Assembly: GCF_026571515.1 (NCBI RefSeq)
Contig: NW_026862901.1
Location: 1 to 59,623, forward strand
Direction of reading: 5' to 3'
Length of the DNA stretch: 59,623 nucleotides
From: Ruditapes philippinarum
Taxonomy: Eukaryota
Part shown: one piece after another, positions 10,993-45,250 of the stretch
Numbering within the stretch: the stretch's first letter is position 1
Layout of the letters: every line of letters begins with the position of its first letter
Notes under the pieces: generated by a model
What the model was told of the DNA's origin: nothing
Database searches by the model: none
Seen by the model: only the letters and a program-made list of their open reading frames with translations
Translations under genes and position numbers: made by a program

Positions 10993-11165
10993 ATATATAT
11001 TTCATTGAAATGATAATTTGATTTGATATGTGTGAGACACTATAGCAACTGATATTGTTATGAGAAAAAAAGAGTTATTTTGATCATTCTAATGGGGACA
11101 TATTTAGTTCCACCTGAATGTAGGAATATGTTAATGTTCAAACAACTAGGTTTGAAATTACATAC

Positions 11166-14150: not shown

Positions 14151-17100
14151 TGCCAATGACAATTTGTCAATAATAACTCTTAAACGAACATAAACATACA
14201 CAATATTTCAAATTCTGAAAAAGTAACATAAACGTGTTGTGAATAAGGCTTTGTGGTTATTTTCTTTTTATTTCGTTTCTTCTTCTTTCATTCATTTGAT
14301 GTTGCTTTATAATCGTTTTAGAAATTGTATATCATATTTAAAAGTATATATTGCAAATATGTTACATTTATATGTGCCAAGATAATTAAGCGATAAATTC
14401 CTGTGTATTCGTTTTGACAATTTATCATTTGACTTTGATTTGTTACAATAAAGGAATAATTAATCAATCGATCATTGTTCGCCCTTACTTTTATCATTGT
14501 GTGTAGGCTTTATAGAAAGTTAGGCGGTACATGAGGAACAATAACAAGGAATATAACATAACAGTACAATCCCACTGAATGTACATCTTGTATCTGTTAA
14601 ATAATAATGTAAATCAATAAAATAATGAGAGACTGTGCAAATAAAGAGACACGATAGTTTCCTGTACATCTGAGTCTTTAGAAGGAGACAATGGGATATA
14701 GATGGAGCTAGGACATATAGGAGGTCAAACTCTTGGGTCGACAATGATGTGTCATAGAAATACATTGTTCTGAGCAGATATTATTTAAGTATACGGTTAC
14801 CAATGTAAATGATGTTCTATCTATAGATGGTTTTCCCCTCGTATAGTTGTAAAAACGTCAAGTAGACTCGCGCGGAGACATCTTAGCTACGTTATTTGAC
14901 TGAACCATAATTACATAATACTGAAAGCAATATACAAAAGTATTCATTTGATATTGTTCATACTCAAGATTAATATATTGTCATATTTTTCTTTGAATGT
15001 CATTAGCGTACAGCATATACATGCAGAATGGTAATTCACTTTGCAAATATTCCTTTTGCGCAAAAGAAACATTTGGGAAGAGCGTAAATTTTAATAAATT
15101 GACATAAATGTTAGAAGATGAGTGTGCTGTTTTCAAGGGAATACATTGTAAATAAATTACAATTTGATAAATTCCTTGCAGTTATTTCTTTGAATCTTTT
15201 TAGCATATTACCATTTGTAACCAAAACAAGTATAACGGATGACAGGATAAACGTCAATGTAAGCTAATATTCGTGACTAGCATCCAGTTTCGTTCGTCAT
15301 GTCCGTTAATTAACAAAAGCACCCAACATGAAACGAGTAGTTTTCAGAAAACCATTTAAGGAGTGACTTGGATGTGTTTTTTTTTAAATTGAAGACTGGT
15401 AAATTTCTGATTGGTTAGAAATATTACCTGTGACACATTCCCTTTGCTGATCGTATATGACTTTGGCTTTGGTGCCTTTTGAGTCCCCCTCCCCTTACCC
15501 TCTTGTTTTAGCCCCACTGGATGCTTTACAATCATTTCTCAACCAAAAGCAGCATAAACAGTTCTACTTCAGTATTAAACTTTTGATATAACTAGATTAG
15601 CAAGCGACATTAAATATGACCAATGTCATTGACACAGTTGAGAAATATATAGGCAACTTTAGGTTATGGACCATGCTATCAGATAAATATATTATTTATC
15701 CCAGTGGAATTTGCCTTGTCGGATCAATAACTACATACAACTCAGATGAACACAATCGTAAAATTCTGAAACAGAGTAGGTGATTGTAGAAATAGTACTC
15801 CCAAAGGTGGCGTTTGTAATAAAATATAAATTGTGCGTTATACTTTGAGAAAATGTTAAAGCTTCTAGGAGGAGCGACTTTTTTCCTCTAATATTAAATA
15901 TTATCTCTCTCTGTTTTAAAAGCGAAAGACAATGTTTAAATACAATATTACATATATCATACAATAAAAACCCAAAAGAAAGTTAATACGGTAAAGTTGG
16001 CAATGTTCTCGTTTTAAGTGTGCATTTTCATGATCGATAGTGGTAAACTTATCCCCTTGGAGACCTTTGCAGTTGATGATGTAACTGTTTAAACGATGGT
16101 GATCCGCATCTTAATATTCTTACTAAAACTTGAATCAAACTGTGTCTATAATTGTGTTAAATATTGCCAAAGGAGTCGTCTTTGCCTTTGTTAATCTTTA
16201 AAAGACTGTTCTTGTAGACAGAAAAAATGCTTGAATTTTACAAACAAAGGTACTGAAAACGGACTTTATTTCTTATATTTCTAACTTCATATCAAATGTT
16301 TAATAAACTCAACAGATACTTTTTTAAAAGAAAAGCAATATGAAGTAAAAATCATCCTTGTAATGAATTCAAATGATTTCATAGATCATAGCTTTATAAT
16401 TTGTAGAGGGAGAAAAGTAATGTATACGGGACAGGGGTGTTGGAATGTTATCATTAAGACATTATAAAAGCATTCTGGGAAGGGAGAAGTGAAGATACCT
16501 GTAAAGCAATGAAAACAAAATTCAACAGACTTGATTTGTTTGAGTTGTTCATGAGAGAAAATGAAAAGTGCAAAGTTTCTCGCACCCTGTCCCTCTAGCG
16601 TCGGCCTAAGCAGTATTTAACTTTAAATACTTAAACATTCTATATTAATGATCCGGAATGAGAAGGAAAATATAACAATACTAAGATGAAGTACGAAGCG
16701 ATTCTGCCAAAATACAGCAAGAATAAACTCATTTCTCAAATAGAGCTGATGTAATGACCAACTTGTGTCTGTTTCATGTCTAATGTTACATGTGTTATCT
16801 CGGATTTGGCATAAGTCAACATTGTAAATGATTTATTTGGATCAAATTGAAGTAGATGTCGGCCTTCCAGAACTTATGTCAGCTGAATCAAGACAAAATA
16901 TATTAATGTCAGCGTTCATGATTTGGCAAGGCATTTTTCATTCCATTTATGGTATGGCTTCTATCATCTTTTTATATAGATTTTTATTGTTTTAGAAATC
17001 GTTCGGCCGGAAGTTAACGAATTGACATCGTTCACTTTCGGTTACATCGGGATATAAAGTAGTTCTAAGTAGTTCTCTGAAACTGTTTTAAAATGTTTTA

Positions 17101-20100
17101 TATTTGGACACAAAATAAATAAAATCAACTGAACTTTTTAAAAGTGATTAGAATTAAAATGTTAGAAATACTATTATTGTCGTCCAAAGTTTAAACATAT
17201 TAATTTAAGCTCGATTGAGAAACAAGTTCTTGCAACTTATATTATTATAATAATATTACTTTCGAGTCCGCTTCCTGGAACCAACCAATACTGGTGTCAT
17301 ATGAAGAAACATGGTCGTGACCCGAGTAGATCTCTAGGCCTACATATTGAAAGAATTAATGTACTGAAAAGATCGGCCTTAATTAATAAAACTAGCTTTT
17401 TCTACAGCAACATTGTGTCAGATGTCAAATAAGCTTTATTCTAATTTGTTATTCTTTCATTTATTTACTTGAAAAAAGCGTAATAAATAATGATTATTAA
17501 ATCATGTCGACTTCTTCGATTTGAATTATATATTTTTGTGTCATATATTTGATGAGTTCTTGTTGTTTTGTCAATTGTTCTTCTTCATATGAAAATACAT
17601 TCTTTGATGTACATTCTTTTCCAATAAATAAAAAAATGATTAAATTTTGTTCCTTATCATTGGTAATAAGTAAAACCACTTGTTTGTTATCATGATTGCC
17701 ATTTCAATATTAAAACCTTTTTTTTTAAAAAAAAACATCTAATGTTAAGTAATAAATCCTTTGTTAATAAAATGCCTTTATAAGCATTTAATGCTTTCAA
17801 ATGATCATTTTTCAGCAGTGTATTGTGTTATTCATTATTGTATGTAAATTTTGTTTGTTCAAAATGTTTAAATAAAATATATTGACACTTAAGATAGTCA
17901 TTTGACACAATGAGTAGCAAAGCTACGTTTATATGACCGTTGTAGGCTTTCTATTCTGCAGTGCGCTAATCAGATTATCTTCTCCCACTCAAAGACTCAA
18001 AATTCCACCATATGACATTTTATTTTTAAACTAACTTTTCTTTATCTGTTATCTTGTCGCTGCTTATTTTTTATTTGTATCATTTATTTTATTTTCTTTA
18101 TATTCTGTTTGCTTCCTTGTTGGTTTTTTATGTCCCCTTCGAGGAAAAGGCGGAATATTGTTTTGCTAATGTCGGTCTGTCGGTCTGTTTGTCTGTCCGT
18201 CGGTAGACCATATGGTTACCGTTGATGATCTTAAAAACTATTTATCTCAAAGTCTTCATATATCACATACTGATGGACCATAACTAGTAAATGACCCTTA
18301 TTGACTGTGGGGTTACTAGGTCAAAGGTCAAGGTCACAGGGCCCTTAAATCTCAGACTGGTTTCCGCTCATTATCTTAACAACTAGTCATCACAAAGTAT
18401 TCATATTTCATAAATTAGTCAGTTGTAGTAGATGGTCCCTGTAGATTTTAGGGTCACTAGTTCAAAGGTCAAGGTCACAGAGGCCTTAAATGTTAGAATG
18501 CTTTCCGTTTATTATCTTGAAAATCATATTATCACTAAGTCTTTATATTTCACGAATTAATTGGTTATAAGTAGTAGATGACCCTTATCAATTTTGGGGT
18601 CCTTTGGTCAAAAGTCAAGGTCACAGGGACCTTAAATTTGTCTGTCTGTCTGTCCGTTGGTAAACCACATGGTTTCCTACAGTTTATCACAAAGACTTCA
18701 TGTTTCAAACACTGATACAAATAAATAGTAGATGACACCTATTGATATTTTGATCACTAGATCAAAAGTCAAGGTCAGAAGGGCCTTAAACGTCAGAATG
18801 GTTTTTGCTCATTATCTTAAAAACTATTTATCACAAAGTCTTCATATTTCAAATATTGACTAGTGATATGTTGTAGATGACTCCTATTGATTTTGGGGTC
18901 AATAGTTCAAAAGTCAAGGTCATAGGGGCCATAAATGTCAGCATGGTTTTCGCTCATTATCTTGAAAACTATATATCTCATTATTTTTTTCCATAACTGT
19001 ACGTACACTTGCATGTATGACAAAATTACCAACAGTATGAGTCAAGGGCTAGGAAGGAGGCATATCATGTATGTCGTTCGACATTTCTTGTTTTCTTTGT
19101 TTTATTGTTGTTGTTTAGTTTTGCTTTTATTTCAAAGTGTAATTTGAATGAATAATGTGTCAATTTTACATTCATCTCAACTTTATGCATTTGCAGGTGG
19201 ATCATTTTCATAATTGATACATTTGCTAGAGTCACTAGAAATGTTGTTATCTCAGTGAGAGATCACGAGTTATTTATTCAATACCACCAACTGATCACCA
19301 TTTTATGTAAATTGATGATAAATGTAATAATTCATATACCGCATTTATTTCTGAACCATTGGCAATATAGTATATATCTACATGGCGTATCTTATCTGAA
19401 ACATTGTATAATTCTAATATCAATATAAAAATTATTGTTTACCAGTGTTAAAATCACACAATTTCATTGCACTGTATCACTACTTAATATTAGCTATTTG
19501 CATTTTATCATTTATTTTTGTCATGTATTTTAATGACTTTTAATAGTTATTTGTCATTGGTGGTGTGTTACAACATTATGAAAACACATAAGACAAAACG
19601 TTGACAACGTTTTTCTTCCCTAACTATTTATACTCCATTTATTCTAGTGATGTAAATTGTGAAATGACATCAGAGTTTATTAGGTTTACATGCAAATGCC
19701 CCAGTGGTCTGATGAATAAAGTCTAGTTTCCAACTGGGAAGTGAATTATGTAGCTTCATCAAGCGGTATAATGTGATTTTACAAAGTAGAATGTACTGGA
19801 TGTAACATAAACATATCTTTTATATGTCTAAGTACTTAGTGACATACCAATACTCAATGTAAGGTTTTTCAAATTAATCTTTTACACTTGCACCTGTTGA
19901 CATGGACGGGGAAAACTGGAAACAATGTTCTTGGTCTATGTAAAAAGTGCTTATATTCCTTGATGTCCATGTTTAAATTCTATTTCCCTATCTACGCTTA
20001 TTTTTTCAAATTTACTTGTCAATTTCTTATCTTACAAAACCTTTCTTCTTTAGGTGGAAAGTTACATTAATTTGATATGGAACAGTGATTTAATAGCGAA

Positions 20101-23100
20101 CAATGGTTTAATAGCGAACAGTGTTTTAATGGGCAGAATCAGTTATCAGCAGGTTAAAGGTTTAAGTCCTTGAACATAAATGCTGTTATAACCGTACATG
20201 ATGGCATTTCAGGCTCAAGAACATAAAATATTATAGTTCCAACAAATTTGTTTTGCAAATATACTTCTTTAAAATGTTGACTTGCTTCATTTTGTTTATA
20301 ATGAATATTCATTTGTTATACGAGCATCATTACATTTCAAATCTTGTTTGAAATAACCATTTACATGTGTACATGGCATGGGTGAGCATTTGTTATTTAT
20401 ATTAAATATCTGATAAAATAAAAAATACAATAAGAAACTGTAAACATAGCATGATATTAAGTTTAATCAACGTGATAAACGTGCTTTCTTATCAGAGACT
20501 GAAGTTCACCATGTAATGGGTTGTAATGCATATTTCTATAGTATTTATCCCCATTAAGTTTTATTTAATGTGTATGATTTTTTAACAATTTTATTGTTCC
20601 CAGATTGCTCACTGTGTAAAGACATAGAAACAGGCTATATTGAAGTGAAAATATGTAGGTTTCAGTCTACATGTATATATCATACAATAACATTTATATG
20701 TCCTAATGGTATTTGTCTTGTCTGAATGCACGAGACTCATAAAGGTAGAATAAGGATCAAAATTGTAATCAAATTCTGAAACAGAAGTTATTTTCTCAAT
20801 TTGATTGCAGGAATTGATATTCCCAAAGATCGATTTTGTAAGTTTTTATTACCGGAAATTACAAGATGCTTTTTATGCGTTCATCTTTCTGTCTTAGTGA
20901 AAATGAATTAACTTTTAAAAAAATGGTTGTATATACTTCTGCTTAGAAGCAAACTATGATTAATCTATAAGAAATAAAACCAACTCTTTTTTACATGGAA
21001 CTTATTTGTTGTTTGTGAGGTTATATGCCGGGAAAGGCCTACATCGAAACTTATTATATGAGTCAAATAAATGTTGTATATTGATTGAATAAAAATATTA
21101 ATGTATAAGCTACAAATCAATGAAGTCTTAAAATCATAAAATGAATAAAAAAAACTGTATTGAAAGCGTACACTTTATAAGAAACAATAAGAGAATCAGA
21201 ATCAGTCGATGACAGATTCAATATTGCCTTCTGAAACCAAATATTAAAATATTAAAGCTCATTATGCGCTAGAAATGCTGCTTTGTTCACATTTTGCTAC
21301 TTTTATAACAAAAATCTGGAAACAAAGTGATCCCTCGGTAGCATTAATCACAACACAATTACATAAGAATTGTAGACTCGGTTTAATTGAGTCTGTACAT
21401 GAGGGATAATGAATAAGTGCAATATCCCTCCCGCCCTCTAGCACCTCTTGAGCGGAACTCCATTCTCAACACTTAATAGTGCTGGCATTAATGATCCCGA
21501 AGGACCAGAAAAATATAACAACACTGTCTCAGGGAAAGTGGTATTTTTGTCTACGAATTTCTGCTTTCAAGCAATTTCTATTATATGGAACATTAAAACT
21601 AATCACTCTCAGCGACGCAGCTTCAAATCTGTTCCAATATCTATTATAAACACTTAATAACTGCACACTTATCACCGGGACAACGTTTAGTTCTATTTGT
21701 GTAAATTATGAGTATCAGAACCCAGACAAAATTAATAAATGTATGAGATTTAGACAAGCTATCACATTAGTCTGGAATATTCAACAGGTTCCAAAGATCT
21801 AGTCTACAGATTAAGCAAATTGCGCCAAATTATTTTTTTTACAGACGACAAACGCCCGTTGAGATTAGAAATGGAAATGTGTCTACCAAAAGATAGAAGC
21901 AATATGGTGATTGATGTATATTATACTTATTCAAATCGACACGAATTGTTTAAACCTTGGCTTTTTTATATGTCATGTCTGCAAAATGTCAATGTCTCAG
22001 TGAATATGAAAAATAAAAAAAAAAGTATTTATTACATGTACGAGCATCTCTAAAAAGTTGCTCTTTTACTTTAAAGGAAAAAATTATTTTCGGAGATTTA
22101 AAAAATCAGTTTAGTCACTCAAAAATTAATCATCTAAATGTATTTTTGAAGTTGTACATCAATCTAGTTCAACTTGTTGTATATGCTCATTATGTTAACT
22201 TGTTTTAAGTAAGTTCAACCATCCATGTCTTTTTTGTATTTGTCACGTGTAAAATGTATATACATTTTGTATTTAATTGTATCATGTAACAAGAAGCATA
22301 ACTTGTTGACATTACTCAATAATGAATCCTCAATCTTAAATCTTAAGAAAAGAACATCCACCAGAAAATGTGCGATAATCAAGTCGATAATTAATTCAAG
22401 CTCAGTATTTCTTCTAAAATTTATCTTTCAAGGCAGTGTAGATTTCTCCAACATGATCTGAAATTCAATTAGTATTGAGCGGAGATTAGATTCAAGCAAT
22501 GTAAACATGTAATAAATATCTCTCTCGTGTTTATTCCAGAACATGCACCTTTTTAGAACATGTTTCAATTACTTGTTTTCTTGTATGCTTAGTGTAGTAG
22601 TTTGTTTACTATTTAAGTTACTTTGTCCTTGAAACTGGAATGATAAACATGGTGAAGTGTCTTTGTTGGAAACAAGATTATTACCGTCCTGTAATTCTTG
22701 ATTTAATAAACTTTATTGTCTGTTTACGTCAACAGAATATTAATGTCACCATCCATGTCGTGGTAATATATTAGTCGGCACTGTTCGTACTTCAATCAGT
22801 ATATATTTTGAAATATTCCTTAAAAATGAAGGCCGGCTTCGTGCAGATTGAATGATATGTAGCTATATTTTGATTATCTTAAATTGGTATTATAATAATG
22901 ATACATTTTACTACCAGTGAAAGTCTGGTTAAAACTTTAATTTAAGAAATAGCCACAAGGGTATGGAAACACTGTCATTGTATTTAGTTTGAAACTGTTG
23001 GGTTTCGAAAGTTGGTACACTCATAACTTTTACAACCAGTGAAAGTCTGGCTAAAACAACAAATTAAGAAATAACCACAAGGTTATTGTATTTAGTTTGA

Positions 23101-24295
23101 AACTGTTAGAATATATATGTGTATATTCCTAAGTTAACCAACGACAGCTTCGAAGAAACACAGCAGAGAATCTGTCACAACAGAATCGATTAGAAAAACA
23201 TAAAAAAAACTCACGTTAAAAGGTAGCTTATGTATCTGCATTGCTTCAATTAAATAACAATTGTTTAGACAAATAATTGTATTTGATGTTGGTTTTATTA
23301 GTCGTAATACTATACATTAAAATCCATTTCTAAAAAAAATAATAATTAGCATGGTATCATTTAAAATTCCATTTCTATTTTTTTTACTTATCTTAATTTT
23401 TATTAGTATTATGTTGCTGACAAACAAAGAATTGACCGATAAAACAAGCGGTATCTTGAGGTAAAATCAAACATATTCAACATGAATATATGGAAACGAA
23501 ATGATAAATTACCAGTATATATAGTTTAGGTTTACGACCCATCTTATCAGATCATCATGTAACATGGAACTGTTCCTGTCGAATCAATAACGGCGATGGA
23601 ATCAGCTGGAGATAATACAATTATTGACACTAACATAAATGCTAAAACAGAATTAGTGCTTCCATAATTGATTGTAGAAATATTATTCCCAAAAGAAAAT
23701 TATTGTAATATTATATTAGCTTACATGACTAAAATCAATAAAAATAATGACATCTGGAAGTAGAAGTGACATAGTAACTAAAATATAGTAATTTAATACC
23801 ACGGCCGCACTAAATAAATGTGTTTTAAATAGAATGTTATAACGTTTTTTGCATGCTACATTGAAGCTGTTTTACTATTTTATCCTATTTAAAGTATAAA
23901 GTTTCACATAAAATAGATGAATGAAACGAATGTGATCCAACAGTTTTTTAAAGTTCAGAATTCATTGCTGAATATTTTATTTACAGTATATTTCAGTCTC
24001 ATTCATTCATATGAACAATTATAAATCAAACATAAAAAACTTATAAAACTATACTTTAAGACACTTTGATTAAATCTACATATATGACAAACAAATATTT
24101 ACATACATATATATTAAGAAGTTAGAAATTAATCTAGATTAAAAGTCACCATATAAGCATAGTTGGAGACATAAACATGTACATGTCATTGAAAAATAAA
24201 CAGCTATTTTACCAAAGATAATAATATCAGGATCTTAATTTATATTAAAAGCACAAGCAACAAAAACTATTTGACATGTACAAAAACAGCCTGCC
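14151..24295 (+). repeat. Tandem segmental duplication, unit 1 (~10.1 kb)
   Basis: Colinear with 24296-37147 at many anchors: 14460/25540, 15610/26580, 16550/27510, 19190/29140, 20600/30780, 21550/34400, 23582/36430, 24230/37080. Confidence 0.95.
18127..19092. mobile_element. Helentron-associated (HINE-type) non-autonomous element carrying a tandem satellite array
   Basis: Starts in a T-run, has a (GTCT/GTCC)n microsatellite and five ~140-bp-spaced units containing TCAAA(G/A)GTCAAGGTCA, and ends with palindrome ATGTCG-TT-CGACAT then TTCTTGTT. Absent at the matching position of unit 2 (~29020). Confidence 0.85.
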
Positions 24296-25212
24296 TGACA
24301 ATGACAATTTGTCATAACTCTTAAACAAACAAAAATAAAGATATACAACTTTTTACATTCGAAAATTATAATGTTGTGAATAAGGGTTCGTGGTTATTTT
24401 CTTATTTTTTTTTATTTTGTGTCTTCTTCTTACATGCATTTTAAGGTTTTTATATTTCTGTTAAAAAGTTTGAATGTTGTTAATTTACTAATTGTTACAG
24501 TTTTAATTCTTTGAAAAGGTTATTTCAGATAACGTACACTTGCGTACACCTAACCTTACTATGTATTATATTCCTTGCAAATTATAAACTCTTCAATTGT
24601 TGTTCTATAGAGAAATAGAAAAAAGGGAAATAAACAAAACAGTCACAACTGTATAAGCACAATTGGGTCGACAACTTATACATCTATTTAATATAATATG
24701 CTGTTTAATACACATTAAACGACAAAACATCATGTTATTATCACTTGTGTTATATGACAACTCAAAGAAACGTATTGATATATTTTCACATTGTTTTACT
24801 TTAATTCAGACTCATTTTAGCGGCAATATTAATTTCTTTCAATTGATTTATTTGAAGTGACTTTTAGTAATATTTTTGTTCACCAAACATTCATATATTA
24901 ATGTTTTTTATGTATTGTTTTGGATCTAGTAAGTGTCATATACTATTGGTTGTTTCAATGTTTTGCATGTACATGTTGTAAAAGATTCAATGATTGACAA
25001 GGAGTATGACTTCTAAGGGATTACACTATTTCATTCATATGTATAATAATTATACTCTGACAATGCCAAATATACCTAACGTATTGTATAGTACATTTCT
25101 CTCTTCTCTTTACTTTTAATACGTATGTACCAAATGCAACACAAATCAAATAGAAAATGAATATCATTTCATTAGTTTGACCATTCTATATTGAAATTAG
25201 AAACATAATATA

Positions 25213-25455
25213 CTGAAACAAAAAAGAAACTTTCTCCAAGTTTCAATGTAGATATGTAAGTACAGTTTTTCAATCCTTTTGAAACTCGATTTTTACGTTG
25301 AATAAACATATCGGGCTTTTATACGGGGATTAGCTGACCGATTTTGCAAACAAAACGAGTTTTACAAGCTACTACATGTATATAAGTGTGTACATCTAAG
25401 TGGTACCCTTGAACAACTGGCACATACTTTGCGAAAGTTTTTTTTTTTGGTTCAG
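25213..25455. mobile_element. Tc1/mariner-type MITE, 243 bp
   Basis: TA|CTGAAACAAAAAAGAAACTTTC ... GAAAGTTT(T)nGGTTCAG|TA: imperfect TIRs with a TA TSD. Confidence 0.65.
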
Positions 25456-31967: not shown

Positions 31968-33176
31968 ATATGTCCCAATGGTATTTGTCTTGTCTGATCA
32001 ATAAATGCGTGAGACTCACATAAAGGTAGAATAAGAATCAACATTGTAATCAAATTCTGAAACAGAAGTTTTTTTCTGAATTTAATTGCAGGAATTGATA
32101 TTCCCACAGATCGATTTTGTAAGCTTTTATTACCGGAAATTACAAGATGCTCTTTATGCGTTCATCTTTCTGTCTTGGTGAAATGAATATTCTTTAGAAA
32201 AAAAAATCTCTTTTATACTTTTGGATGGAAGCAAAATAAGTTTTAACTATAAGTAATAAAAAGAACTCTTACTTTTTTAATGGAAGTTATTTGTTGTTTG
32301 TGAGGTATATGCCGGGAAAGGCCTTCATGGAAACTGATTATATGTTTCAAATCAATGTTGCTGTCTGGTAGATGTCCTGAAATTCTCTGCTTTTGACACT
32401 GAAAAATTATTGATATCATTTTATTACTTCACCGAAGTTTTTATTGAACTTAGTCTTATGCATTATTCATTATTTTTATTTTTACTCATTTTACTTGAAT
32501 ACAATTAAATACATTCACTGTAACGCTAAAATGTCTTCAGATAGGTAAGGGTCGGCGTTGATGACCATTTCTGTGACAGTAAGGCGTTAAAAAAAGTCTT
32601 TTATTTTGCCATATGCCGGCATCTGTGTAGTTTCCTGGTATTTTTCTTTCGAATCGTTTTTGTTTTGATCAATCTTTTCGTATTTGAAAGACGGACAAAC
32701 ATACAACTCTGCCTTTGTTAATTAATAGGGGTTTCACTTTTTCATAGTAGAATTACATTTTACATTTGTTTCGATAATTACATGGTTATTTTTACAATAT
32801 TCAAAACATTTTGTATGTTAGATAAACGAGGCTGTTATACATGTAGAATATAACTTAAACGAAAGCTACAATATAGATACGAGCTCAAAACATGTCCTTA
32901 TTTATATGTTTTAACATTGCCTTCCGACATTTGTATATCGAATGAAAATATTAATGTATAAGCTACAAACCAATGTAGTCTTAATATCATAAAATGAAAA
33001 GAAGCGTACAATTTATGAGAAACAATAACAGAGTCGAAATCAATCGATGACAGTTACACATTGCATTCTGAAGCCAACATTTAAAGCTCATTACTCATAA
33101 GAAATGCTACTTTGTTCACATTTTGCTACTTTTATGACAAGTCATTTTAGATTAAGCGCTGCATTCTTCAAATGAT

Positions 33177-33439
33177 TTGTTTGTTTGATTTGGTTTTACG
33201 GCGTTTCCAACATATTTTGAGTCATATGGCGCGAAAACAGGAAAGATGATTTTGATAAACATTGGGTGTTACAAATGAAATCAACACCAGTTGTTAAAAC
33301 CATCGCAGCTGCTGGAGCCAAGAGGTGCATAGACGCCAGTTATTCGAACCAATTAAGTCGCCTGTCTCGATCACGCAAGGATAAACGGTTCCTTAAATTC
33401 TGCCTCAATTCATATAGGCAACCCCTCAGCCACGAGGGG
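33177..33439 (-). mobile_element. SINE-like retroelement, 263 bp (family shared with 12603-13169)
   Basis: Perfect 12-bp TSD TCTTCAAATGAT (33165-33176, 33440-33451), (AAAC)n tail, 5' end CCCCTCGTGGCTGAGGGG. Confidence 0.9.
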
Positions 33440-36400
33440 TCTTCAAATGATACGTTTCTAAACTGCTCTCAAACATTTGTTTAAATGTTAAAGTCATAGT
33501 TTCCATTGTGTCCAGAATGTGACATTTGTTTAACGTTAGACCATAACCATAAATCACACAAATAGTTAATATTCATTTATTATTTATAATCTTTGTACAA
33601 TAAAAGACTTATAATTCTAAAACAATTAACCGAAATGATAGAATGTATTTTACGTGTTTACTGAAGAGGAACAATTGTTTTTTAAGTTGATACTATAAAT
33701 CATACAAAAGACGTATGTTTTGTAGTTTATTTAAGTAAAGAAAATATACACAAAGTTATTAGATATAAATATATGTGTAGTTATACATTAAGTAACAAGA
33801 TAATTGTGTATATGCAGTACATAAGACAGGCTTTTACATTATCCCTGATGTATTAGGTGATGAAATAAATCAAACTAAATGAGATGGCGATTGTTTATTT
33901 AGATTCACAACTTTTTCAATATTTAAAGTTGCTACTTTAAAGATACACACTGAAATAGTAAAGCTTTAATAGTCGTGATAGTATGATATCAGTGCAAATT
34001 TTGTGACAATAAAACGTTTTTATAGTAATATATTTTCTAATATGGTGTAGGAATAAAGTACCCAGCATCGTATTGAAAAACAGAATTACATCAGTCTTGC
34101 TTTTTATAAACTTTTCTTAAGTATAGATAAGCATTTACAAAATCAAATCCGTCAAGAACGGTGCAGCCAATTTAGTAAAATACTCATAAGTAGTTATTCG
34201 AATAACCAAAGTAAATACGTTATGATTCATTTGAAATACTGCAATCTTATTGGACAAAACTAGTTTCAAAACTGGTTGTTACAATAATTAAAAAATCTCA
34301 AATACTGTCTCAAAGATTATATAACTCGTTACATTTTAGATTTTAAGATGCACACTATTTACATAGTATATATTATAGATTTCAGGGAAAATGATATTTT
34401 TCGTCTACGAATTTCTGCTTTCAAGCAATTTCTATTATATGGAACATTAAAACTAATCACTCTCAGCGACGCGGCTTCAAATCTGTTCCTATATCTATTA
34501 TAAACACTTAATAACTGCACACTTATCACCGGGACAACGTTTAGTTCTATTTGTGTAAATTATGAGTATCAGAACCCAGACAAAATTAATAAATGTATTA
34601 GATTTAGACAAGCTCTCACATTAGTCTTGAATATTCAACAGGTTCCAAAGATCTAGTCTACAGATTAAGCAAATTGCGCCAAATTATTTTTTTACAGACG
34701 ACAAACGCCCGTTGAGATTCGAAATGGAAATGTGTCTACCAAAAGATAGAAGCAATATGGTGATTGTTGAATAGTATACTTATTCAAGTCGACATGAATT
34801 GTTTAAACCTTGGCTTTTTTATATGTCATGTGTGCAAAATGTCAATGTCTCAGTGAATATGAAAAATAAAAGGGTATGTTTACATATACGAGCATCTCTG
34901 ATAAGTTGCTCTTTAATTTAAAGGAATAAATTATTATCGGAGATTTAGAAAATCAGTTTAGTCACTCAAACATTAATCATCAAATTAAATGTATTTTTGA
35001 AATTGTACATAAATTTTGTTCAACATGTTGTATATGCTCATTATGTTAACTTGTTTAAAGTAAGTTCAGTCATCCATGTCTTTTTTGTATTTGTCATGTG
35101 TGATATGATTATAATTATGTTAATGGTATCATGTAACAAGAAACATAACTTGTTGACGTTACTCAATGAAGAATCCTCAATCTTAAATCTTATGAAAAGA
35201 ACATCCACCAGAAAATGTGCGATAATCAAGTCGATTATTAATTCAAGCTCAGTATTTCTTCTAAAATTTATCTTTCAAGGCAGTGTAGATTTCTCCAACA
35301 TGATCTTTAATTCAGTTAGTATTGAGCGGAGATTAGATTCAATCAATGTGAACATGTTATAAATATCTCTCTCGTGTTTATTTCTGAACATGCACCTTTT
35401 AAGAACATGTTTCAATTACTTGTTTTTTACTTGTATAGTTTGTTAAGTATGAAAGTAAATTGTCCTTGAAAACTTAAAGAAACATCAAACATGATTAGGT
35501 GTCTTTGTTGGAAAGATAACAAGATTATAACCGTCCTGTAACTCTGAAATGAATAAACTCTATTGCATGCTGACGTCAACAGAATACCATATGTGTCGTG
35601 GTTATATCTCAGTCCGCACTGTTCGTACTTCGATCAGTATACGAGTATATTTTAAATATTCCTTAAGAATGATGGACGTTTTTTTCAGATTAAATTATAT
35701 TTAGCGTGGTAATTGCAAGAAGATATAAAAATATATTTTAGGTATCTACAATTGGTATTATAATAATGGTCATTTTTACTAATAGTTAAAGTCTGATTAA
35801 AACTTCAAAAAAGGGTATGAAAACACTGTGATTGTATTTAGGTTGAAACAGTAAGAGTTCATTTTATATTTAATTCATTAGTTATGCAATGTCAGCTTCA
35901 AAGAAACACAGGAGATAATCTGTCACAACATGGTATATTAGGAATAAGAATCGATTAGAAAAATAACAGAGAACTACGTTAAAACTTAATTGCTTAATCA
36001 AATAATTAATAATTGTTCCAAAAGATTGGTTACAAACTAAAACGAATAATTGTATTTGATAAGTTGATTTTAAAAGTTGTGATATTCTACATTAACAGTC
36101 CATTTCTAACAAAATAAATTTAAATTTAACAGACAGCATTTAAATTTCCAGTAAGTCAAAAAACATTCGCGTCATGCTTTTTGTCTTTAAACTTTTTCTT
36201 TTAAATTATTTAATCTTAATGTATGAGTCCAGTCACATGTTGATCAAAACAAAGAAGTTTCCAATAAACAATCAACCGCGTGTTCTGTTGATATTGAATT
36301 ATTCATATTATACATGTACATGAATGTACGGAAACGAAATGTTCAAGCACCAGTTTTTTTATAGTTTAAGTTTACAATCCATCTTATCAGATCATTATGT

Positions 36401-37339
36401 GACATGAACCTATGGAACCGTTCCTTTTAAATCAATAACGGCGATGGAATCAGCTGGAGATAATACAATTATTGACACTAACATAAATGCTAAAACAGAA
36501 TTAGTGCTTCCATAATTGATTGTAGAAATATTATTCCCAAAAGAAAATTATTGTAATATTATATTAGCTTACATGACTAAAATCAATAAAAATAATATTT
36601 GGAAGTAGAAGTGACATAGGAACTAAAGTATCGTAATATCACAGGCTTACAAAATAAATGTGTTAAGAAGAATGTAACAGCGTTTTGGTATGCTTCAATG
36701 ACACTGTTTCGCTATTTGGTCCTATTGAAAGTATTAAGTTTCGAATAAAATAGATGAATAAAACGAAATTTGTTCCAACACTTTGTAGAATCCAGAATTT
36801 ATATATTGTAAAATATTTTAGTTACAGTATACTTCAGTCTCATTCATTCATATAAACAATTATATATCAAACATAAAAAACTCATTAAACTATACTATAA
36901 GACACTTTGATTAAAATCTACATGTATGACAAACAAATATTTTCATACATATATATTTTAGAAGCTACAAATTAATCTAGATGAAAAGTCACCATTTTCA
37001 GCATATTTGCAGACATATATATGCCTAAACATGTATATGTTATTGAAAAATCAACAACTATTTTACTAAAGATAATAATATCAGGATCTTAATTTATATC
37101 AAAAACACAAGCGGGAAAAACTATTCGATGTTTACAAAAACTGCTTGAATATTTTAATCTTTTCGCATTATTTTCTAAGATTCTTAGAAACATAGCAAGT
37201 TGCAAAACGTGAAAAAAAGAAATCGTTTCAACTGACTAAAGACAATATTGGTAAAGAATGAAACTTTACGTATGATTAATAGAGATTAAAATAAAATAAA
37301 TGAAATAGAGAATAAGGCATAATCAACGGCATTTTAATT

Positions 37340-39300
37340 CATAGCATGATCGCTGATTGGCCGATTGTGTTTCTGGGTTATACTTATTGTGACGACAGAA
37401 AAAGTGATAACGATAGAAAACTTCCTATTCAGGTGCTCGTTCATGGGCTCCTTTTTTCCTGGGGTTTCATCTTGTGACGACAGGGTACGTGGTTTTAACT
37501 TTGCCTGTGATAAGCCCCCCTTGTACAAATCAGATAAACGTCGTGTTTCAATGCCCTTTCTATTACACATTTTCTATCTAACAAACTCTTAATTTTAAAC
37601 ACTTCAAATATAAAAGGAAATTTGATATGATTATTTTATTTTACAATTTAAAGCACGCTTGATTTAGAAATGTATCAATTATTTCAACTGGACGAAGATT
37701 TGGATCATATACGTCTTGCTATGATCAATAGAAGGGTTATTGGAACTATGGCAGCGTTTCAGATAATATCGTTCAAGGACATATCTGCTCAGAAAATCGC
37801 CTGAGTTTGCATTTGCAATATTAATGTTGGCAAACACCATTCCGCGAATCGGTTGCAAAGTGTTATTTTACTTCATACATATATTATCCTTTTTATATCA
37901 ATTTGATAACAAAAAAGACAAATCACCAATACTAAAGACGATCAATTTCAGACAGTTATTACTGTACGAAATAAAGTGCAGTCAAAACAACTTGACTCTA
38001 ACACCGAAAAGAATTACAGACGACTTGTTTACAAGAAATGCAAGTCATTATAAAAAAATCATCTGTTATTATACAGTCATATTCGGAATATGATAATAAA
38101 GTTCAGTTAGGAGAGTGCACCGTTTACGGAATGCAGTGCCTACAAGAGACTTTGTAATTTTAAAGAAGCTTATCAGTTATTAATACTGGAAAAAAGTTAA
38201 ATGATAAAGAGTATTTTTTGCCTTAATCACAGTTACGACAATCAAAATTAAAAGATGATTTTCAGGTTTTTAAGAATTTAGGAATAAAGAGTATGTTTTG
38301 CCTGATAAATGTGTTCAATCTTAACACCGCCATCATAAGTATTGTGCAAAGAAATGACTTCGACGGTTACACAAAATTGTTCCAGTGTGAAAACATCATA
38401 AGGGCTTACAATGCGTCTGAGTGATACGAGTTTGAAGAATTCACAAATTATACATTAAATAAATACCTTGCTTTGAGATTAAATTCAGTGTGACGATATT
38501 TAATTCAAGCCTTTTGTATAACAGTTTAAATTATTAAACATTTGCTTTTGTACCATCATTAATAATTCTTTCATCGCTAAATTGAAAATCTGAATTTGTT
38601 ACATTAACCATTTCCTGGTTTGTTTAATAATATATTTCAAATTTATCAATTGTAACTCAATACTTCAACCTTACTTTAAAATGTTTGTTTTATCGCCGGA
38701 AACTGTGATACGTCTACCCTTTGGGTGGATTGCATGATAGTAATTATAAGTAATGAATTTAAAGCAAATATCACAATGCAATTGAGACAATATTAAAACT
38801 TTAATGAACTTTAAGTATTTGTCATAAACAAAACCGATATAATTTTAAAATGGTCGTATTATAAGCAAATCAATAACATTTCAAATAAATGTTATTATCA
38901 TTAACAAACTGGTAAAATTTCAAAATAGATTGTGTTATCAAAAGATATGTCAGCCTTTGAAAAATTATTGCCTTTGGTTATAATTTTAAAACATAACCTT
39001 TGAAAAATCATAACCAAAAACCAAACACACATCCTTTGTAAATGCAGTATATATACCTTAACTAGAAACCTTTTGGGAGAAAGGCAGTATAGTTACACTA
39101 ACAACTTATATAGGCTTAGTGTGTTAATATGGTTGTTTATCAAAGAAATACTTTGTATGTCCCAAATGTATATATTTTGTCGATTCCTAATGAGCTGACA
39201 GATGACAACAGGTCTACAAATGACACAATGATAAAACCCTAGAACAAAATCTGATTGTAGAAATATTACTCCCAAAGGCGCGTATTGTAATTCATGTCAT
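37340..39300 (+). repeat. Older diverged duplication, paralogous to ~42870-45250
   Basis: Colinear anchors at 37345/42870, 37520/43045, 37905/43472, 39070/45025 and 39252/45210. Confidence 0.75.
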
Positions 39301-42300
39301 TCTTGGACTTCGATTCCTGAATATTTTCTCGCTAGGCGTTATTCATTACTGACACTGTGTGAAAAACATATCCATAATTTATGTTAGGAAAAATGCACTG
39401 TATGACAAATATATTGAGGAACTTTATGTGCATGGTTATCGTGAGCAGTCAGGGAATTTTATATCTTAAAATGATTTAGACCTCCGTGTGATTTTGTTTT
39501 GATATAAACTAGTCTTATAAAAATTCATATAACGAATTTGATCATATATCAATTAAACAAAGTTTAGTTCATTAAGCGTTTATAAAACAATATTTTTTTC
39601 AGTGTTATAGTAATACATGTAACGGCATATCAAGCCTAAGGTCGAAACTTCAGAAATATAAATCTGCTCTTGGCAAGTTTGATAACAACATTTCTGCAAA
39701 CGTCTAGTTAGTTCATATGGTAACACTTACATTTCAATGAGTCTGCAAAGTTTTCAATTTGACTATAATTATATGCTCTCAATATCAAGCAAGTTTTCTT
39801 TTTGTTCGAAGATATTGCTATGAGAGCAATTTAACAATCTCATTTGTAAGCGATATTTTACGTGCATGGCTTTTGCGCAACAATAATGAAGTGCAATATT
39901 TAGAAATTTCAATTATTGAAATAGAAAACTTTGTATTGAATATTGAACAACATTGCACATCACAACATTGTATCTTCTATGTCGTTATATTAATACTCAT
40001 TTTATATATTAATGTCATTTTCCATGTTGTCACATCACTTAATAACACCCCCTTACTTTACACGAACTCTTAATATTTGAAAACAATTTTACTTCAATTT
40101 CATTGGGTGATAATAATGGCCAAACTCGAAATAAATTCTTTTAGGAAATTTCTTCCCAGATGTCACTTTGAATTCACGAGGAAACAATTTTATAACTAAA
40201 TTTGTTGCTCCCTGTAGAGATACACAATGCCTGAATGAGGCAAGACAATATTATCTTGGAACATTCATCAAAAAATATCTAAAATCATTTAAATTGCAAA
40301 AGTCTAAATGTTTTGTAGGGCATATAGAAAGAATACTATAATGCAATGTTTTATCGTCATTTCTATCGGAAATCAGGAGTATAGGTGATACTATGTAACT
40401 TAAACGATTTACTTAGTTACTAAATACTTGCCAATCTCCTTAAATTAGCAATTAATTTCAAGAACTATTGTCTATAAAAATGGCTTCTGTGTACCCTGTT
40501 TGGGCGTGTCGGGGCGTGGGGGGCAGGTCCTGTGAACGTTGCCTTTGCCTTGTCTTTATTCTCGTTTGTTATCGATTCTTTTTCTTGTTTAAGTACATTC
40601 GGGCTGTCGATCGATGCTACATTCATGAAGTTCTCAGTTTGATATTTGCTTTTAAGTGCAAATGAATGTCATATTTATTTTGTATTTCGAAAGCATATAA
40701 TTGCAATCATTCATAGTTACATATAACATTTTGTGACTGAAAATAAGAATGTATCTGCTTCAGTTAAACCCATATTCATTAACCACATATTCACTAATTC
40801 CAAACAAAAAGAAACCATCAAATACGCAACAGCAAACAATCAACGTGACAACAAACCAATATTTTTCCACTTGAACTAATGAAAAAGGTAGATACCACAG
40901 AAACTCAACAAGGAAACAAACTAACACAAAAAAGAAACACTAAAGACAAATACTCACGCACTCAAAAACTCAACTCAACACATACAAATATAGACAAGTA
41001 AACGAGTTTCATTTAATTCTTTAAATTCTATGGTTTAACTTACATGTTTTAGACTGGTCCTTGCTGTTAAGTTTATCTCTACTTTCTCTCTAGGACAATT
41101 ATCATCCTTCTATCTTGCTATATTTACACAGTGTTAACAAAGAAATATGACATGCTGAGAGCTTTAATCGTGTATATGCTTGTTAATATTAAAAGCAAAA
41201 TTATATGAACTATTTATATCACAAAGAAACTAGTTTTCAAACAATTTATGATATTATCGTGTAGCTAATATTTTGCAACTTTTTAATAATAAAAAACAGA
41301 AAACGACTTAAATTTAGCTAAGCTGTTGCAAATCCTAGTAACTACAATATGTATCACGTATAAACTCATTGCGCTCTTTTGCAAATTTGACTTAGAAATT
41401 TAAATTTTTCTAAATTTCCAGCAATTTTACTCCCACGTGTCAATCAATTACTGTAATTGAAAATTCAATTTATCACCAGCTTCAAAGAATATGTTTCTTC
41501 AGCATTCCAATGCATATCGTTGATTGGTAATTCATTTCAGTAATGAATATTTTCTTGTTAATTATTCAAAACGGACAAGTAAAAGCAGATCTCTGTGAAA
41601 TGAATTACAAATAAGTTTTTGCAAATCAATGGAAACTAGATTTTATATATTATATTACAGATGGCTAATGTACCTTTTCTGTTGTTTTTAATAAATAAAC
41701 AACATTTTTATCACCACCACGGTGAGCTTATTAAAAACACATGTCCAAGAAAGTGCACTTCATTTTGTGCAAGGATATATCTGTAGGAAATCTCTCGAAT
41801 TTGTAGTTGCAATGAAAACGTTAGTAGAAATGTTTCCACGAAAAAGTATCAAAGTGTAACTGTACCTATGTTTCCCTTAAACAAATAACAAATTCAGTAC
41901 AGAAAGGGAATTAGTGCAAATGAAGTGACATACTAATATGCAGGGAGTTTTATAAAAAGATAATTCATATGAGCAGTTGGATCATCTTTACAACACGTTC
42001 GTTTTAGGACAGCAACTCTGGCGTACAGAACATCTTTTTCACAATATCTAAGCAATTTCCTGTATGTTCTCTCTTTGAAACGATACGCTTCTAGTGTGAT
42101 TTGATATCATTGATATGAAATGAAGAAAAGTACTTCATGACATTAAAGCAATCATAATTATAAGATATTTTAGTTAATCTAATTTCATTATTTCTGTCAC
42201 AATCAGACATATTTACATCAAAGTCATAATAAGTATGACAAAGAACGACATCGATTAAGTTGGTTTATAACAAATATTAGAATTGCTCGAGGTTTGCTGC

Positions 42301-42869
42301 AGATTTTACATATTTCGTTTTATTTTAGAATTAAACTTGATCGTATTAAGTTAATTCCAAATTTTCATTTGAACTAAGTTGTTAACCAATTGTTCATTCC
42401 ACATGTCTTCCAAAAATAAGAAAAACTGTTAAAACGATATAAAAAAAAAGGTTACGGAAACGTTTTAAATACGCAACAATACTCCTGAAACTAGGGCTCT
42501 TGAAACATTATTATACGAATCATTGTATGATATTATTGGTAATGGAAGTGCTTGAATTAGCCATATTTCACATGAATATTCTGTAAATGGCCAAAGCCAA
42601 TTGGTTTTGCTGATATTGCTAATAAACTTAAAACATTTATCATAGACCTTTTAGCAATGGAAATCGTTATTTTTTTGCCCTTTAAAAAAATTATTTATTT
42701 ATATTCATGCAACAAACAATATTTGCGCCATAGTTCGGAGACATATCTATTATTAAAGAATTGCCAGAAATAAATCATAAACCCATAAATGTACAGTGCA
42801 TTAAGTGGAGTGTAGGTATTGGCTTCCCGTACTCCAGTTACCGCCCTGTCTGTCAGGGATAAAAATAGA

Positions 42870-45250
42870 GCATGCTCGTTGATTGGAGGTTTACTTATTG
42901 TGAAGACAGGGAAAGTGATAAAAACAGACAAATCATATTCAGATGCTGGTACCTTGATTAGCTTTATCTGGGGTTCATATTACGACGACAGGGAACGTGT
43001 TTTATTTTGCCTAGGATACAAACGATAAAGACATCGCCCCCGTCGTACAAATCTGATAGCCTCGCGTTTCGATGCTCTTTCTATTGCAAAATGATATTGT
43101 GACTGTGATCAAATATGAATTAATCAAACCATCAGGTTGTTGGAAACTGTTGTAAACAATACTCTTTCATTTTGTTATTTGTTGATTTGTCATCAGCGCA
43201 AGTAAAGCGAACTCTCGACGAATTGGACTATGATAAAACTGAATACTTTTGTGTTTTCGTGAGACGGATTATACACGGCGGACTTCTTAATTTTAAATGG
43301 ACTTATGAAAAGAATATACAGCCTTGCAGATATTCTTGGGAAATAGTTTCTCTCTTTCGGACAATAAGATTCTCTCTTTCGAGCTATTGGCTATTTACGA
43401 TAAAATGCTAAAAGATTTAAGACGAAATATTCATTTGACATGACTTGTATTATGTTATCTAAACTGTCAAAAATAATAAAAAGATAAATTCACCAGTACG
43501 TCGGATTGGTTCTTATTTAAAAAAATGTCCGCCATAAAGCAAAACTTGGAAGTATAAAAGAGTTAGTGCTAGAAAAACAATATTTGACGAGATAACTTGA
43601 CAATAATCACATGAATATAAAGCTTATATTGCACTGGAAAAAAAAACTATGTGAATAATCTTAAAAGTAATGTATACTCGGTTGGCCATGATTCGTTACC
43701 CTGCTAGTTTGATAAACTATATTTCCTTATGACACAAGCGTTCTATGATAAAGAAATTTTGCAGATACATTAAATTTACTTTGATGTATAAAAATATACA
43801 ACTGTTTTCTTTATTAACTGACATTTGTTGAGACTTTCTGGCATACACAGTAAGGGTGTTTGTTGACTCTAGGACAGGGACGAATTTAGGACACCCGACG
43901 ATATATTTCGAATTTGATTTAATATAATTTGTATGTTTTTTATCAATATAAAAATATACATATGTCCAGACAGAATCCCAATAAATGTAATGAATCATTT
44001 TTCTGTCTTTAAAGTATAGGATTCAGGGCTGCTACCACTTAATATTGTAGATTTAACAGGTTACCGATATCTATTTATTTAGATTAAGCAATTTTCAATG
44101 AATTATTCATATAAGTAGAAATGTTCTGTAAAACCATATATTACAATTATGTAAGCATCATCCTGGTAGTATGATGGAGTGAATATGCAAATATCGGGTA
44201 CAGAACTTATTCAAATTAGGAGTGATGAATTGCTTGCGTTTTTATGAGTATCAATTAACGTTATAAATGTTCATAGTAGTTTATAGGTGTTTTGCGTAGG
44301 AATAAAAGAAATCAATGATTTCTGATAATTAATAAGATGATAACATTTACTGAATTGATTAAAATGGTCGTTATACTCAACCATTCACCTTATTTATCAC
44401 TGTCAGCAGACATCACGCACTTTAATCTGATCTTAATTATATAAAACAAATGTATAAACAATTAATAATGAATGATTTGTCTACGTGCTAAATATTTAAA
44501 CATTCTTGATTATATGTAAAATTGTAAAAACGCTGGAAATGGGATATCTTTAAAGAGCAAAAAAAGAAAAGAAAAAAAGAACAGAGCGAAAAGTTAACGA
44601 CTTAGGTCTTTTAGAAATAATGGAAAGTAAATCATCCCTTCCGCCCCCCAGCACCGGCTTAGTGGTAATCACTTATAAATAATATCAGCACTGATAAATA
44701 TTGATCCCGAAGAACCGTAAATAGTATAACAACGCTGATAGAAACACTAATGTCCATTAAGATACATGAAAGTTTATTTAAAAGCAATTTTAGTTACGCC
44801 CATGACAGAATAAATAAATTTTGAAATAAGGTAACAAAACTTGTGACCGTCTGAAAAAAATTGAGTTATCAAAAGGAAAATATTTAACCTTTAAGGTTAC
44901 ACAGTGTAAAAGTATATTATGTTTGATTTATAGTTAAAAAATTCCTATACACTTCAGACTCTTTTAAAATACAAACATATAGTATAACTTTAAATACCGA
45001 CCTATTCATCATATTCAAGTAGTCTTTTGGGGAAATATACAGTATAGTTACAGCAGAAACTTACTTAGGCTAAGTTTAGTAATTGAGTACGTTTTTTTCA
45101 CAGAATCACTTTTGGTGTCCCAATCTTTCTTGTTGAATCAGTAACTATCTGCGTAATTAATTTAGACTTATCTACAAGTCTCGCAATCATAAAACTCCAA
45201 GGCATAATTTGATTGTACAAATGATACTTCCAAAGGTTGGTAATGTAATT
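42870..45250 (+). repeat. Older diverged duplication, paralogous to ~37340-39300
   Basis: Same anchors in the same order and orientation. Confidence 0.75.

Follow-up and report, generated by a model that had tools for sequence, protein, structure and literature searches.

Conserved non-coding modules multiplied in tandem and a candidate RNA docking site upstream of synaptotagmin-12 in Ruditapes philippinarum

What are the eight short modules that recur in a 59,623-nt stretch of the Ruditapes philippinarum genome (the window), and, if they act through RNA pairing, with what do they pair? The eight core positions given by a sequence-only reading of this DNA (15781, 20802, 23669, 26750, 32083, 36517, 39252 and 45210) are all correct, as is its count of three versions per duplication unit plus two more. 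An HMM of the eight copies returns exactly these eight matches in the window, all on the + strand. Five old types can be told apart: a (15781/26750), b (20802/32083), c (23669/36517), d (39252) and e (45210). With leave-one-type-out HMMs every type was recovered (E 1e-20 to 3e-9), the best background match having an E value of at least 1.4. Types a, b and c lie in a first unit (14151–24293, + strand) that recurs head to tail as a second one (24296–37147, + strand), the two differing at 948 of 7365 aligned sites; the second unit may be a true duplication, with eight module copies in all, or may reflect two haplotypes assembled in tandem, each then having five. Other patches of low divergence occur in the duplication, for instance at 21529–21904. 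Pattern and DNA-query searches, which give lower bounds for very diverged copies, confine the modules to this one locus of the 1.4-Gb clam genome.

The modules (dock-complementary core, described below, in brackets) extend over 15674–15831 (15784–15819) and 26643–26799 (26753–26788) for type a, 20677–20854 (20805–20841) and 31953–32135 (32086–32122) for type b, 23541–23721 (23672–23708) and 36381–36569 (36520–36556) for type c, 39135–39301 (39255–39290) for type d and 45095–45258 (45213–45248) for type e. They are motif islands of ~150–180 bp in which the core spacing is nearly fixed (±1 nt) and indels are free elsewhere; TCCCAA/G, for example, is present in seven of the eight copies, against 0.13 expected per 185 nt. 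The core consensus quoted earlier stands as a majority string, with exceptions in type b (TGCAGGAATT and the end TTGTAAG), in copy 32083 (TAATTGC and CCCACAG) and in type e (TGTAC, TTCC and ATGTAAT). The upstream motif is likewise present in a patchy form: type c lacks TCCCAA, copy 20802 lacks ATCAATA, and type d has diverged. ACAAT, proposed as a possible Sox/DM-type site, is found at the homologous place in three of the five types only. In the second copy of type b two otherwise invariant core columns are changed and a dispersed non-autonomous transposon (30872–31945, no strand assigned) cuts the 5′ edge; this copy is probably decaying. Type e, in which 8 of the 41 core columns common to the other four types are broken, forms the weakest duplex with the dock and is probably in decay as well.

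The comparison of motif and flank divergence that had been suggested as a check shows the modules to be better conserved: between the recent duplicates they differ at 17 of 453 sites and the flanks at 430 of 2899 (window permutation p = 0.009). Among 86 windows, two of the three module windows are the best conserved, and the core of type c has 0 differences in 91 positions between its copies. The haplotig copy of type e is full of 1-nt indels and was not used for judging selection. By these comparisons the eight modules are non-coding elements that have multiplied in tandem and are kept by selection, and their earlier description as selected and non-coding, and as neither a dispersed transposable element nor an intact exon, holds.

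The selected feature had been sought in a local stem, said to form in every copy between an upstream 7-mer and TGATTGY. A 7/7 partner (6 Watson-Crick plus 1 G-U) is found in six of the eight copies, and only a 6/7 partner in 32083 and 39252; the chance of an equal partner in a random 67-nt stretch is 0.02–0.08 for the six and 0.35–0.38 for the two. The predicted probability of the stem ranges from 0.02 to 0.99 across the copies, its partner in type c occupies a non-homologous column, and its 3′ strand, TGATTG, is fixed whether or not the partner pairs. In a MAFFT alignment none of the 7 pairs is changed on both sides and covariation is no higher than in shuffles, and RNAalifold predicts no pairs. 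The A-T to G-C compensatory change claimed for type b requires a two-column manual shift of the alignment, while the proposed second hairpins occur in single copies only and are built from unconserved sequence. With no consensus fold, z-scores near 0 and no covariation, the local stem fails as a conserved, selected feature, and a structured small ncRNA family with a local consensus fold was rejected. A SECIS-like reading, whose spacing fits types a and d only and which finds no coding gene upstream by eye, was also discarded, as was the nematode piRNA motif CTGTTTCA, which is present in types a and b only. Should the modules act through RNA pairing, the data favour a distant partner at 55608–55652, outside the coordinates of the sequence-only reading, over the local hairpin.

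This candidate docking site (55608–55652, + strand) is a unique inverted counterpart of the core. It is complementary, in order, to TTGYAGRAA, TCCCAAA and TTGTAA, that is, to all three invariant core blocks; its second spacer is 7 nt longer than in the cores, and a bulged extension to ~55661 can pair with TGA. The dock region is single-copy. The site came out of a planned scan, in which a single tile paired best on the sense strand with each of the four types tested, and the joint duplex energy at the dock (−110.3 kcal/mol) was the best of ~24,100 tiles (next, −99.0), with a Gumbel fit giving p ~0.07 per 59.6-kb strand. The pairing-aware block score at the dock, 51.5, was reached by none of 220 control 5-kb blocks and none of 100 shuffles and still ranks first with G-U counted as mismatch, and the three-block pattern has three matches genome-wide (the dock itself, the same site on the haplotig and an unrelated one) and none for the reversed control; both regex and block scores were devised once the site was known. 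With a similarity matrix in which TGA is included, the dock stands at chance level (18.7, haplotig 22.6, versus shuffled maxima with a mean of 18.6 and a maximum of 26.8). The locus holds several paralogous, conserved tandem candidate selectors and one same-strand site complementary to all of them at the same nucleotides, the latter being weaker by the matrix and Gumbel tests.

The pairing itself can be followed over 155 cells (five types, + strand), of which 110 are Watson-Crick, 20 G-U and 25 mismatches. There are 20 G-U cells on the + strand versus 3 on the − strand, and departures from Watson-Crick pairing are mostly G-U on the + strand. Counted from the cell table as distinct changes, the bias is 7 versus 1 (p = 0.035), a within-genome polarity whose G-U changes have a common ancestry, with five of the seven placed at the edges of blocks. 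Invariant core columns pair with the dock and variable columns fall in loops. Upon cofolding with the flanks, the three blocks are predicted to pair with the dock at P 0.76–1.0 in six of the eight copies; copy 20802, whose local hairpin is the strongest and is predicted to outcompete the dock, favours that hairpin, and type e pairs poorly. For the upstream motif, neither the window nor the next 23 kb offers a partner that exceeds the control. The dock shows low haplotype divergence, but lies within a 2.8-kb low patch, so that this signal is not specific.

The dock lies 10–40 kb downstream of the modules and 17 kb upstream of the first coding exon of synaptotagmin-12 (Syt12), which is found on an overlapping contig. 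The Syt12 ATG exon starts at an acceptor 8 nt upstream of the ATG, and therefore untranslated exons must lie upstream. By eye, a 3′ splice site and a possible 44-nt non-coding exon are predicted at 55818–55885 (+ strand), with AG at 55840–55841, 13/16 pyrimidines, no AG for 36 nt and a GTATGT donor (55886) at the exon end; downstream of the dock, there are thus a predicted acceptor at ~190 nt and the Syt12 ATG-exon acceptor at 17 kb. No donor common to the types was found within 400 nt upstream of the cores, where the best donors score like random sequence by approximate splice weights that could miss non-coding first exons. No variable exon is conserved across the types, and no module was found to adjoin one or its splice site. 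A microexon reading (YAG...GTAA, 26–27 nt) was rejected, its donors with T at −1 and +5 being poor and credible sites occurring in type b only; so were minus-strand acceptors (TTTCAG/TTTTAG/TTCTAG), three of four of which have another AG 12–20 nt upstream, with no shared donor after them. In the bins of five copies, mRNA-seq depth is near background, 0–0.13 in three runs and 0.05–1.6 in a fourth, in samples that may or may not express Syt12; these four runs list no joint in the bins and show no place where many reads begin or end at the modules.

Since the core that the modules share is complementary to a single, unique site downstream, the modules are likely competing RNA-pairing partners. 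We give a probability of about 0.5 to the reading that they are competing "selector" sequences which would pair with one dock in a pre-mRNA read from the + strand, probably that of Syt12 in its 5′ region; as no variable exons or shared donors were found, the locus is not classed as a dock/selector member. According to this model, array and dock would be on one transcript and the selectors would pair with the dock one at a time, each duplex looping out the 10–40 kb in between. Looping could place the 5′ end that adjoins the selector in use near a constant acceptor downstream of the dock, either the predicted one at 55841 or the known ATG-exon acceptor 17 kb on. The choice would be among non-coding first exons or promoters, because mollusc Syt12 proteins start in the ATG exon itself; neither such exons nor transcripts of this kind were found. 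The local 7-bp stem, which overlaps the first pairing block, could tune each selector, and the rest of the module, including the motif 70–105 nt upstream, may be promoter or exon sequence. The array might have grown by duplication of one stem arm, as proposed in PMC6071210. We advance only tentatively the fuller claim that a bivalve dock/selector pairing over 10–40 kb picks among duplicated, purely non-coding Syt12 5′ ends, a choice of promoter or leader and not of protein isoform.

The main rival, itself somewhat unlikely, is that regulatory DNA was duplicated here, the modules being enhancers or alternative promoters that serve Syt12 or some unseen gene, and that the inverted site consists of the same protein-binding motifs reversed or arose by chance. 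The motif-island architecture, the recurrence of TCCCAA/G, the selection on modules with little RNA and the fact that most of the module beyond the 36-nt core is unexplained by the dock would all suit such elements, and duplication evidence is reported for 18–34% of shadow-enhancer sets in PMC13345019. However, the second spacer of the inverted site differs by 7 nt and none of the other parts of the module is present there, and binding by a protein would not account for a G-U compatibility biased to one strand. Moreover, the GATA, Onecut, C/EBP half-site and FOX motifs occur frequently in DNA as AT-rich as this, and only one of the eight copies carries the CTCF core. A bacterial promoter scan was set aside as not meaningful for this DNA. 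It is improbable that every module makes up, wholly or in part, a separate gene for a small or long non-coding RNA, whose RNAs might pair in trans with the 55.6-kb site of the Syt12 pre-mRNA. Same-strand copies 3–6 kb apart, the selection, the G-U bias and the presence of the local stem in the minimum-energy fold of four of the eight copies (versus 26 of 919 background windows) are consistent with such genes, and short RNAs would be lost by mRNA-seq. Against them, Rfam gives no match, either at gathering score or at E ≤5, there is no tRNA, the modules contain neither conserved C/D or H/ACA boxes nor an Sm site nor a hairpin of miRNA length, and read starts or ends do not pile up.

Quite improbable, finally, is that the modules are relics, left by a decayed exon or by a fragment of a transposon and propagated through tandem duplication, with low divergence due to gene conversion and the dock due to chance. 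The other low-divergence patches in the duplication would fit, and so would the open frames: the claim that no frame stays open is right in that none is open in all types, but type e lies in a minus-strand frame of 100 codons and type a in one of 83 codons. The type e frame is open too, with three conservative replacements, in an allele on a metagenome contig, and types d and e align nearly gap-free over ~290 nt. Yet the d–e comparison shows neither codon periodicity nor synonymous excess in any of the six frames, type c carries a frameshift and a stop in the type e frame while its core is unchanged, and the ranking of two module windows as best conserved speaks against decay. A coding exon array was rejected for want of a shared open frame with synonymous excess; Pfam gave no family for 95 open frames, a set that omits the second duplication unit, and a search of the ESM Atlas and representative proteins returned as the only relative one allele of the type e frame. 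A dispersed transposable element was rejected as well, no module copies being found elsewhere in the genome (a lower bound for very diverged copies). Pattern matches on C12292, C12815, C12939, C7620, C15595, C1632 and two metagenome contigs are at chance level by the module HMM, viral contigs gave 0 matches, and a search of sequencing runs listed no RNA run that contains the module. Even on the main rival reading, that of duplicated regulatory DNA, the modules are a family of regulatory elements specific to this locus, under selection and next to a synaptic gene.

As for known systems, the proven dock/selector cases in the literature consulted choose coding exons and come from arthropods, amphioxus and human. 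The closest is chelicerate sDscam-beta, where the selectors of the 5′ variable cassettes lie 43 ± 10 nt after the donor of each coding cassette and pairing is proven by compensatory mutation (PMC9258826). As there, tandem candidate selectors lie upstream and are all complementary to one candidate dock, which in sDscam-beta is in the intron before the constant region, and long, variable distances are bridged by pairing, here as a proposal. Unlike sDscam-beta, the clam array, known from sequence, shows no coding cassette or shared donor, and its candidate host is Syt12 in a mollusc. In Drosophila 14-3-3zeta exon 5 and Dscam1 exons 4 and 9, too, several paralogous selectors are upstream of one dock, and a similar origin by duplication of one stem arm is proposed (PMC4691838 and PMC6071210); those clusters, however, control internal coding exons over shorter spans, whereas only non-coding sequence separates the clam selectors. 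Duplication-born shadow enhancers also form local families of similar non-coding elements near one gene, but predict no single complementary site with G-U polarity (PMC13345019; bioRxiv 10.64898/2025.12.03.692127). A literature search, with subscription journals mostly outside its coverage, found no paper joining docking site, selector, mollusc and splicing, or synaptotagmin 12 and bivalve. If true, the model would extend the dock/selector mechanism to bivalves and to non-coding 5′ ends, and would offer a small birth-and-death series, made up of five types, two of the copies in decay, and a single dock, in which the nucleotides to change in compensatory-mutation tests are exactly defined. Clustered protocadherin promoters with their conserved sequence element (CSE) resemble the array in being tandem paralogous non-coding elements with spacing-sensitive motifs upstream of the constant region of a neural gene (PMC3333863). 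Unlike them, the clam modules have no large variable exon after each unit and carry the CTCF core in a single copy, and a protocadherin-type CSE promoter array was rejected on these two grounds. The opposite orientation of the downstream clam site recalls that of the protocadherin HS5-1 enhancer.

The eight core positions reported by the sequence-only reading (15781, 20802, 23669, 26750, 32083, 36517, 39252 and 45210) are correct, and an HMM search of the window returns these copies only, all on the + strand. They represent five independent module types, namely a (15781 and 26750), b (20802 and 32083), c (23669 and 36517), d (39252) and e (45210); when a type was left out, the HMM recovered it at E values of 1e-20 to 3e-9, against 1.4 or worse for the background. 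Six of the eight copies stem from the duplication of one segment head to tail (14151-24293 and 24296-37147); the two units differ at 948 of 7365 aligned sites. Since this divergence is close to the difference between haplotypes, 14151-37147 may instead be two haplotypes assembled in tandem. The remaining blocks common to both units are dispersed repeats. Genome-wide DNA and pattern searches, which set lower bounds, place the module at this locus only, together with a haplotig copy of type e found with a local HMM. A pattern match on another contig (G000:C7620) is a chance one; at ~18.2-18.6 kb (-) that contig has an open frame resembling, by eye, the first helices of a rhodopsin-family GPCR. 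Two weak same-strand look-alikes of the core, at 41415-41465 and 15405-15445 (+), are perhaps decayed extra copies, perhaps chance.

The modules are real and selected. Between the members of the three recent pairs, 17 of 453 module sites are different (the module being taken as -105 to +45 relative to the core, as bounded by the cross-type alignment), against 430 of 2899 flank sites. Sites are not independent; a permutation with three random 151-site windows gives p=0.009, and modules a and c are the two best conserved among 86 windows. A 375-nt patch free of modules (21529-21904), partly a dispersed repeat, also differs little between the units, by 3-4 changes per 150 sites. Copy 32083, whose 5' edge was struck by a 1.07-kb transposon, has two changes at otherwise invariant core columns; shared core columns are broken at 8/41 in e, 7/40 in b, 4/37 in a, 2/35 in c and 1/34 in d.

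A conserved local stem supported by a compensatory change had also been proposed. This stem can indeed form in each copy; RNAalifold finds no pairs in the aligned copies, and 0 of the 7 stem pairs is altered on both sides. Of 48 folding tests, 46 give z-scores near 0 (the other two give -2.25 and +2.3), and the stem probability is below 0.1 in three copies. The minimum-energy fold contains the uninterrupted helix in 4 of 8 copies versus 26 of 919 background windows, an excess that counts as about one event because a, d and e share the partner by descent. No Rfam family reaches its gathering score and none overlaps a module at E<=5; a tRNA search found none, and 95 open frames gave no Pfam match at the curated cut-off. 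No open frame is common to all types, and both codon periodicity and synonymous excess are absent between d and e. A 100-codon open frame spans copy e (45101-45400, -). Searching 1.84 billion proteins with a profile built from the a and e frames gave one match: a metagenome contig of 2.1 kb encodes an allele of the e frame that differs by three conservative replacements, and no other relative was found.

The downstream sense strand was then scanned for one site able to pair with the a, b, c and d cores alike. A single tile, 55608-55652 (+), is the best for all four types; its reverse complement contains the three invariant core blocks in order, the second spacer being 7 nt longer, and it is single-copy, haplotig apart. 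We refer to it as the candidate dock, and to the cores that would pair with it as selectors. Among ~24,100 tiles on six strands, the dock has the most favourable joint duplex energy (-110.3 kcal/mol; runner-up, -99.0); the energies have a heavy tail, however, and a Gumbel fit puts p at ~0.07 per window strand. When the leading TGA is part of the similarity matrix, the dock scores 18.7, which is chance level (shuffled maxima 18.6 +/- 2.4). Two further measures were shaped after the dock had been seen: a pairing-aware block score of 51.5, reached by 0/220 control 5-kb blocks (max 47.5) and 0/100 shuffles (max 48.5), and a genome-wide three-block pattern, whose hits are the dock, the haplotig copy of the dock and a single unrelated locus. 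Counting G-U as a mismatch lowers the block score to 45.25, again with 0/220 and 0/100 (max 45.0).

Of the 155 block cells in the five types, 110 form Watson-Crick pairs; 20 of the remaining 45 are G-U pairs when the + strand is read as RNA, against 3 for the - strand. Counted from the cell table as distinct changes, these are 7 (+) versus 1 (-) (p=0.035), and 5 of the 7 lie at block edges. In every one of the eight copies the + version of the duplex exceeds the - version in stability by 5-11 kcal/mol, and internal loops take up the variable core columns. When the flanks are folded too, six copies pair all three of their blocks with the dock at P 0.76-1.0; at 20802 the local hairpin beats the dock, and e pairs poorly with it. 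This + strand pattern is what selectors constrained by a single dock should show, and a protein-binding site would not predict it.

Our leading reading, to which we give a probability of roughly 0.5, is a Dscam-like competition between selectors for one dock in the 5' region of synaptotagmin-12 (Syt12). Duplicated enhancers or promoters are a weaker candidate, which accounts for the motif islands, the selection and the missing reads and leaves the G-U polarity unexplained. Regarding those reads, of four RNA-seq runs over 26300-46250, three have a mean depth of 0-0.13 and the fourth has 0.05-1.6 at the bins of 26750, 36517, 39252 and 45210, while the bin of 32083 is swamped by transposon reads; among the minority of rows that were listed, there are no joints or pile-ups of read ends on modules. 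The runs did not sample short RNAs, which leaves room for the unlikely case that each module is a separate non-coding RNA gene, possibly pairing in trans. Least likely, the modules are a relic with a chance inverted match; the dock match is probably real, though not certain.

Syt12 is placed by an overlapping contig, C7416, which carries 40.3-59.0 kb of the window in reverse (76-92% identity), extends past it and bears the gene in the orientation of the window + strand; one exon is 94% identical to the Mercenaria protein across 69 residues, which makes the organism a venerid-like clam. All its coding exons lie at 139-209 kb of C7416 and none in the window. The ATG exon has an acceptor 8 nt ahead of the ATG, and an MSD/MSE N-terminus is common to 5 of 6 full-length-looking mollusc relatives (the sixth is truncated), so one or more untranslated exons must lie on the upstream side, in the direction of the window or within it.

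By analogy with known systems, in the selector/dock reading a transcript starting close to one of the modules would base-pair through that module's selector with 55608-55652, the duplex would loop out 10.4-39.8 kb, and the chosen 5' end would be joined to a constant acceptor. The latter could be a strong candidate site 190 nt after the dock (AG 55840-55841, 13/16 pyrimidines; only 6 sites in 45.5 kb have at least 14) or the Syt12 ATG exon, 17.3 kb after the dock on C7416. In mite sDscam-beta (PMC9258826), a selector follows closely after every 5' cassette and pairs with a single dock, located in the intron that precedes the constant region; the pairing shortens the effective intron, as proven by disruptive and compensatory mutations. 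Two other papers describe downstream docks also for 14-3-3zeta and Dscam1 exons 4 and 9 (PMC4691838) and propose an origin by duplication of one stem arm (PMC6071210). The array would work like these systems, except that the variable exon is the missing piece. We do not assign it to them because no donor is common to the types within 400 nt of the cores (scored with approximate splice weights), no cross-type similarity extends outside the module, and the motif 70-105 nt upstream of the core has no pairing partner above control. The mechanism itself is known; a bivalve example that spans tens of kilobases and lacks a coding cassette is absent from the literature searched and would be new if the pairing holds.

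Faint, poorly aligning similarity occurs 3' of modules a, b and e (16690-16944, 32317-32404 and 45638-45877), with no counterpart found for c or d. Units d and e share a second block (39881-40351 and 46696-47216, ~67%), single-copy except for the haplotig, with open frames of 110 and 103 codons that belong to no family; 8 of its first 10 gaps are multiples of three with MAFFT, and not so with another aligner. On C7416, a 61-kb intron containing a long retrotransposon-like frame separates Syt12 coding exons 3 and 4, and an acetyl-CoA-carboxylase-like exon and a single-exon Toll-like receptor lie farther along. In this 1.41-Gb, 31% GC genome, a G+C- and CpG-rich 380-nt stretch at 56340-56720, missing from the haplotig, is probably a polymorphic insertion. 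A broken pogo/Tigger-like transposon (8229-11451, -; HTH_psq, DDE_1) is interrupted at 10750-11002 by a 250-bp palindromic MITE, with another copy at 1021-1273 and several on C7416. Finally, 5347-5790 and 18228-18971 hold a 22/44-bp minisatellite and a 145-bp tandem repeat, the latter dispersed in the genome.
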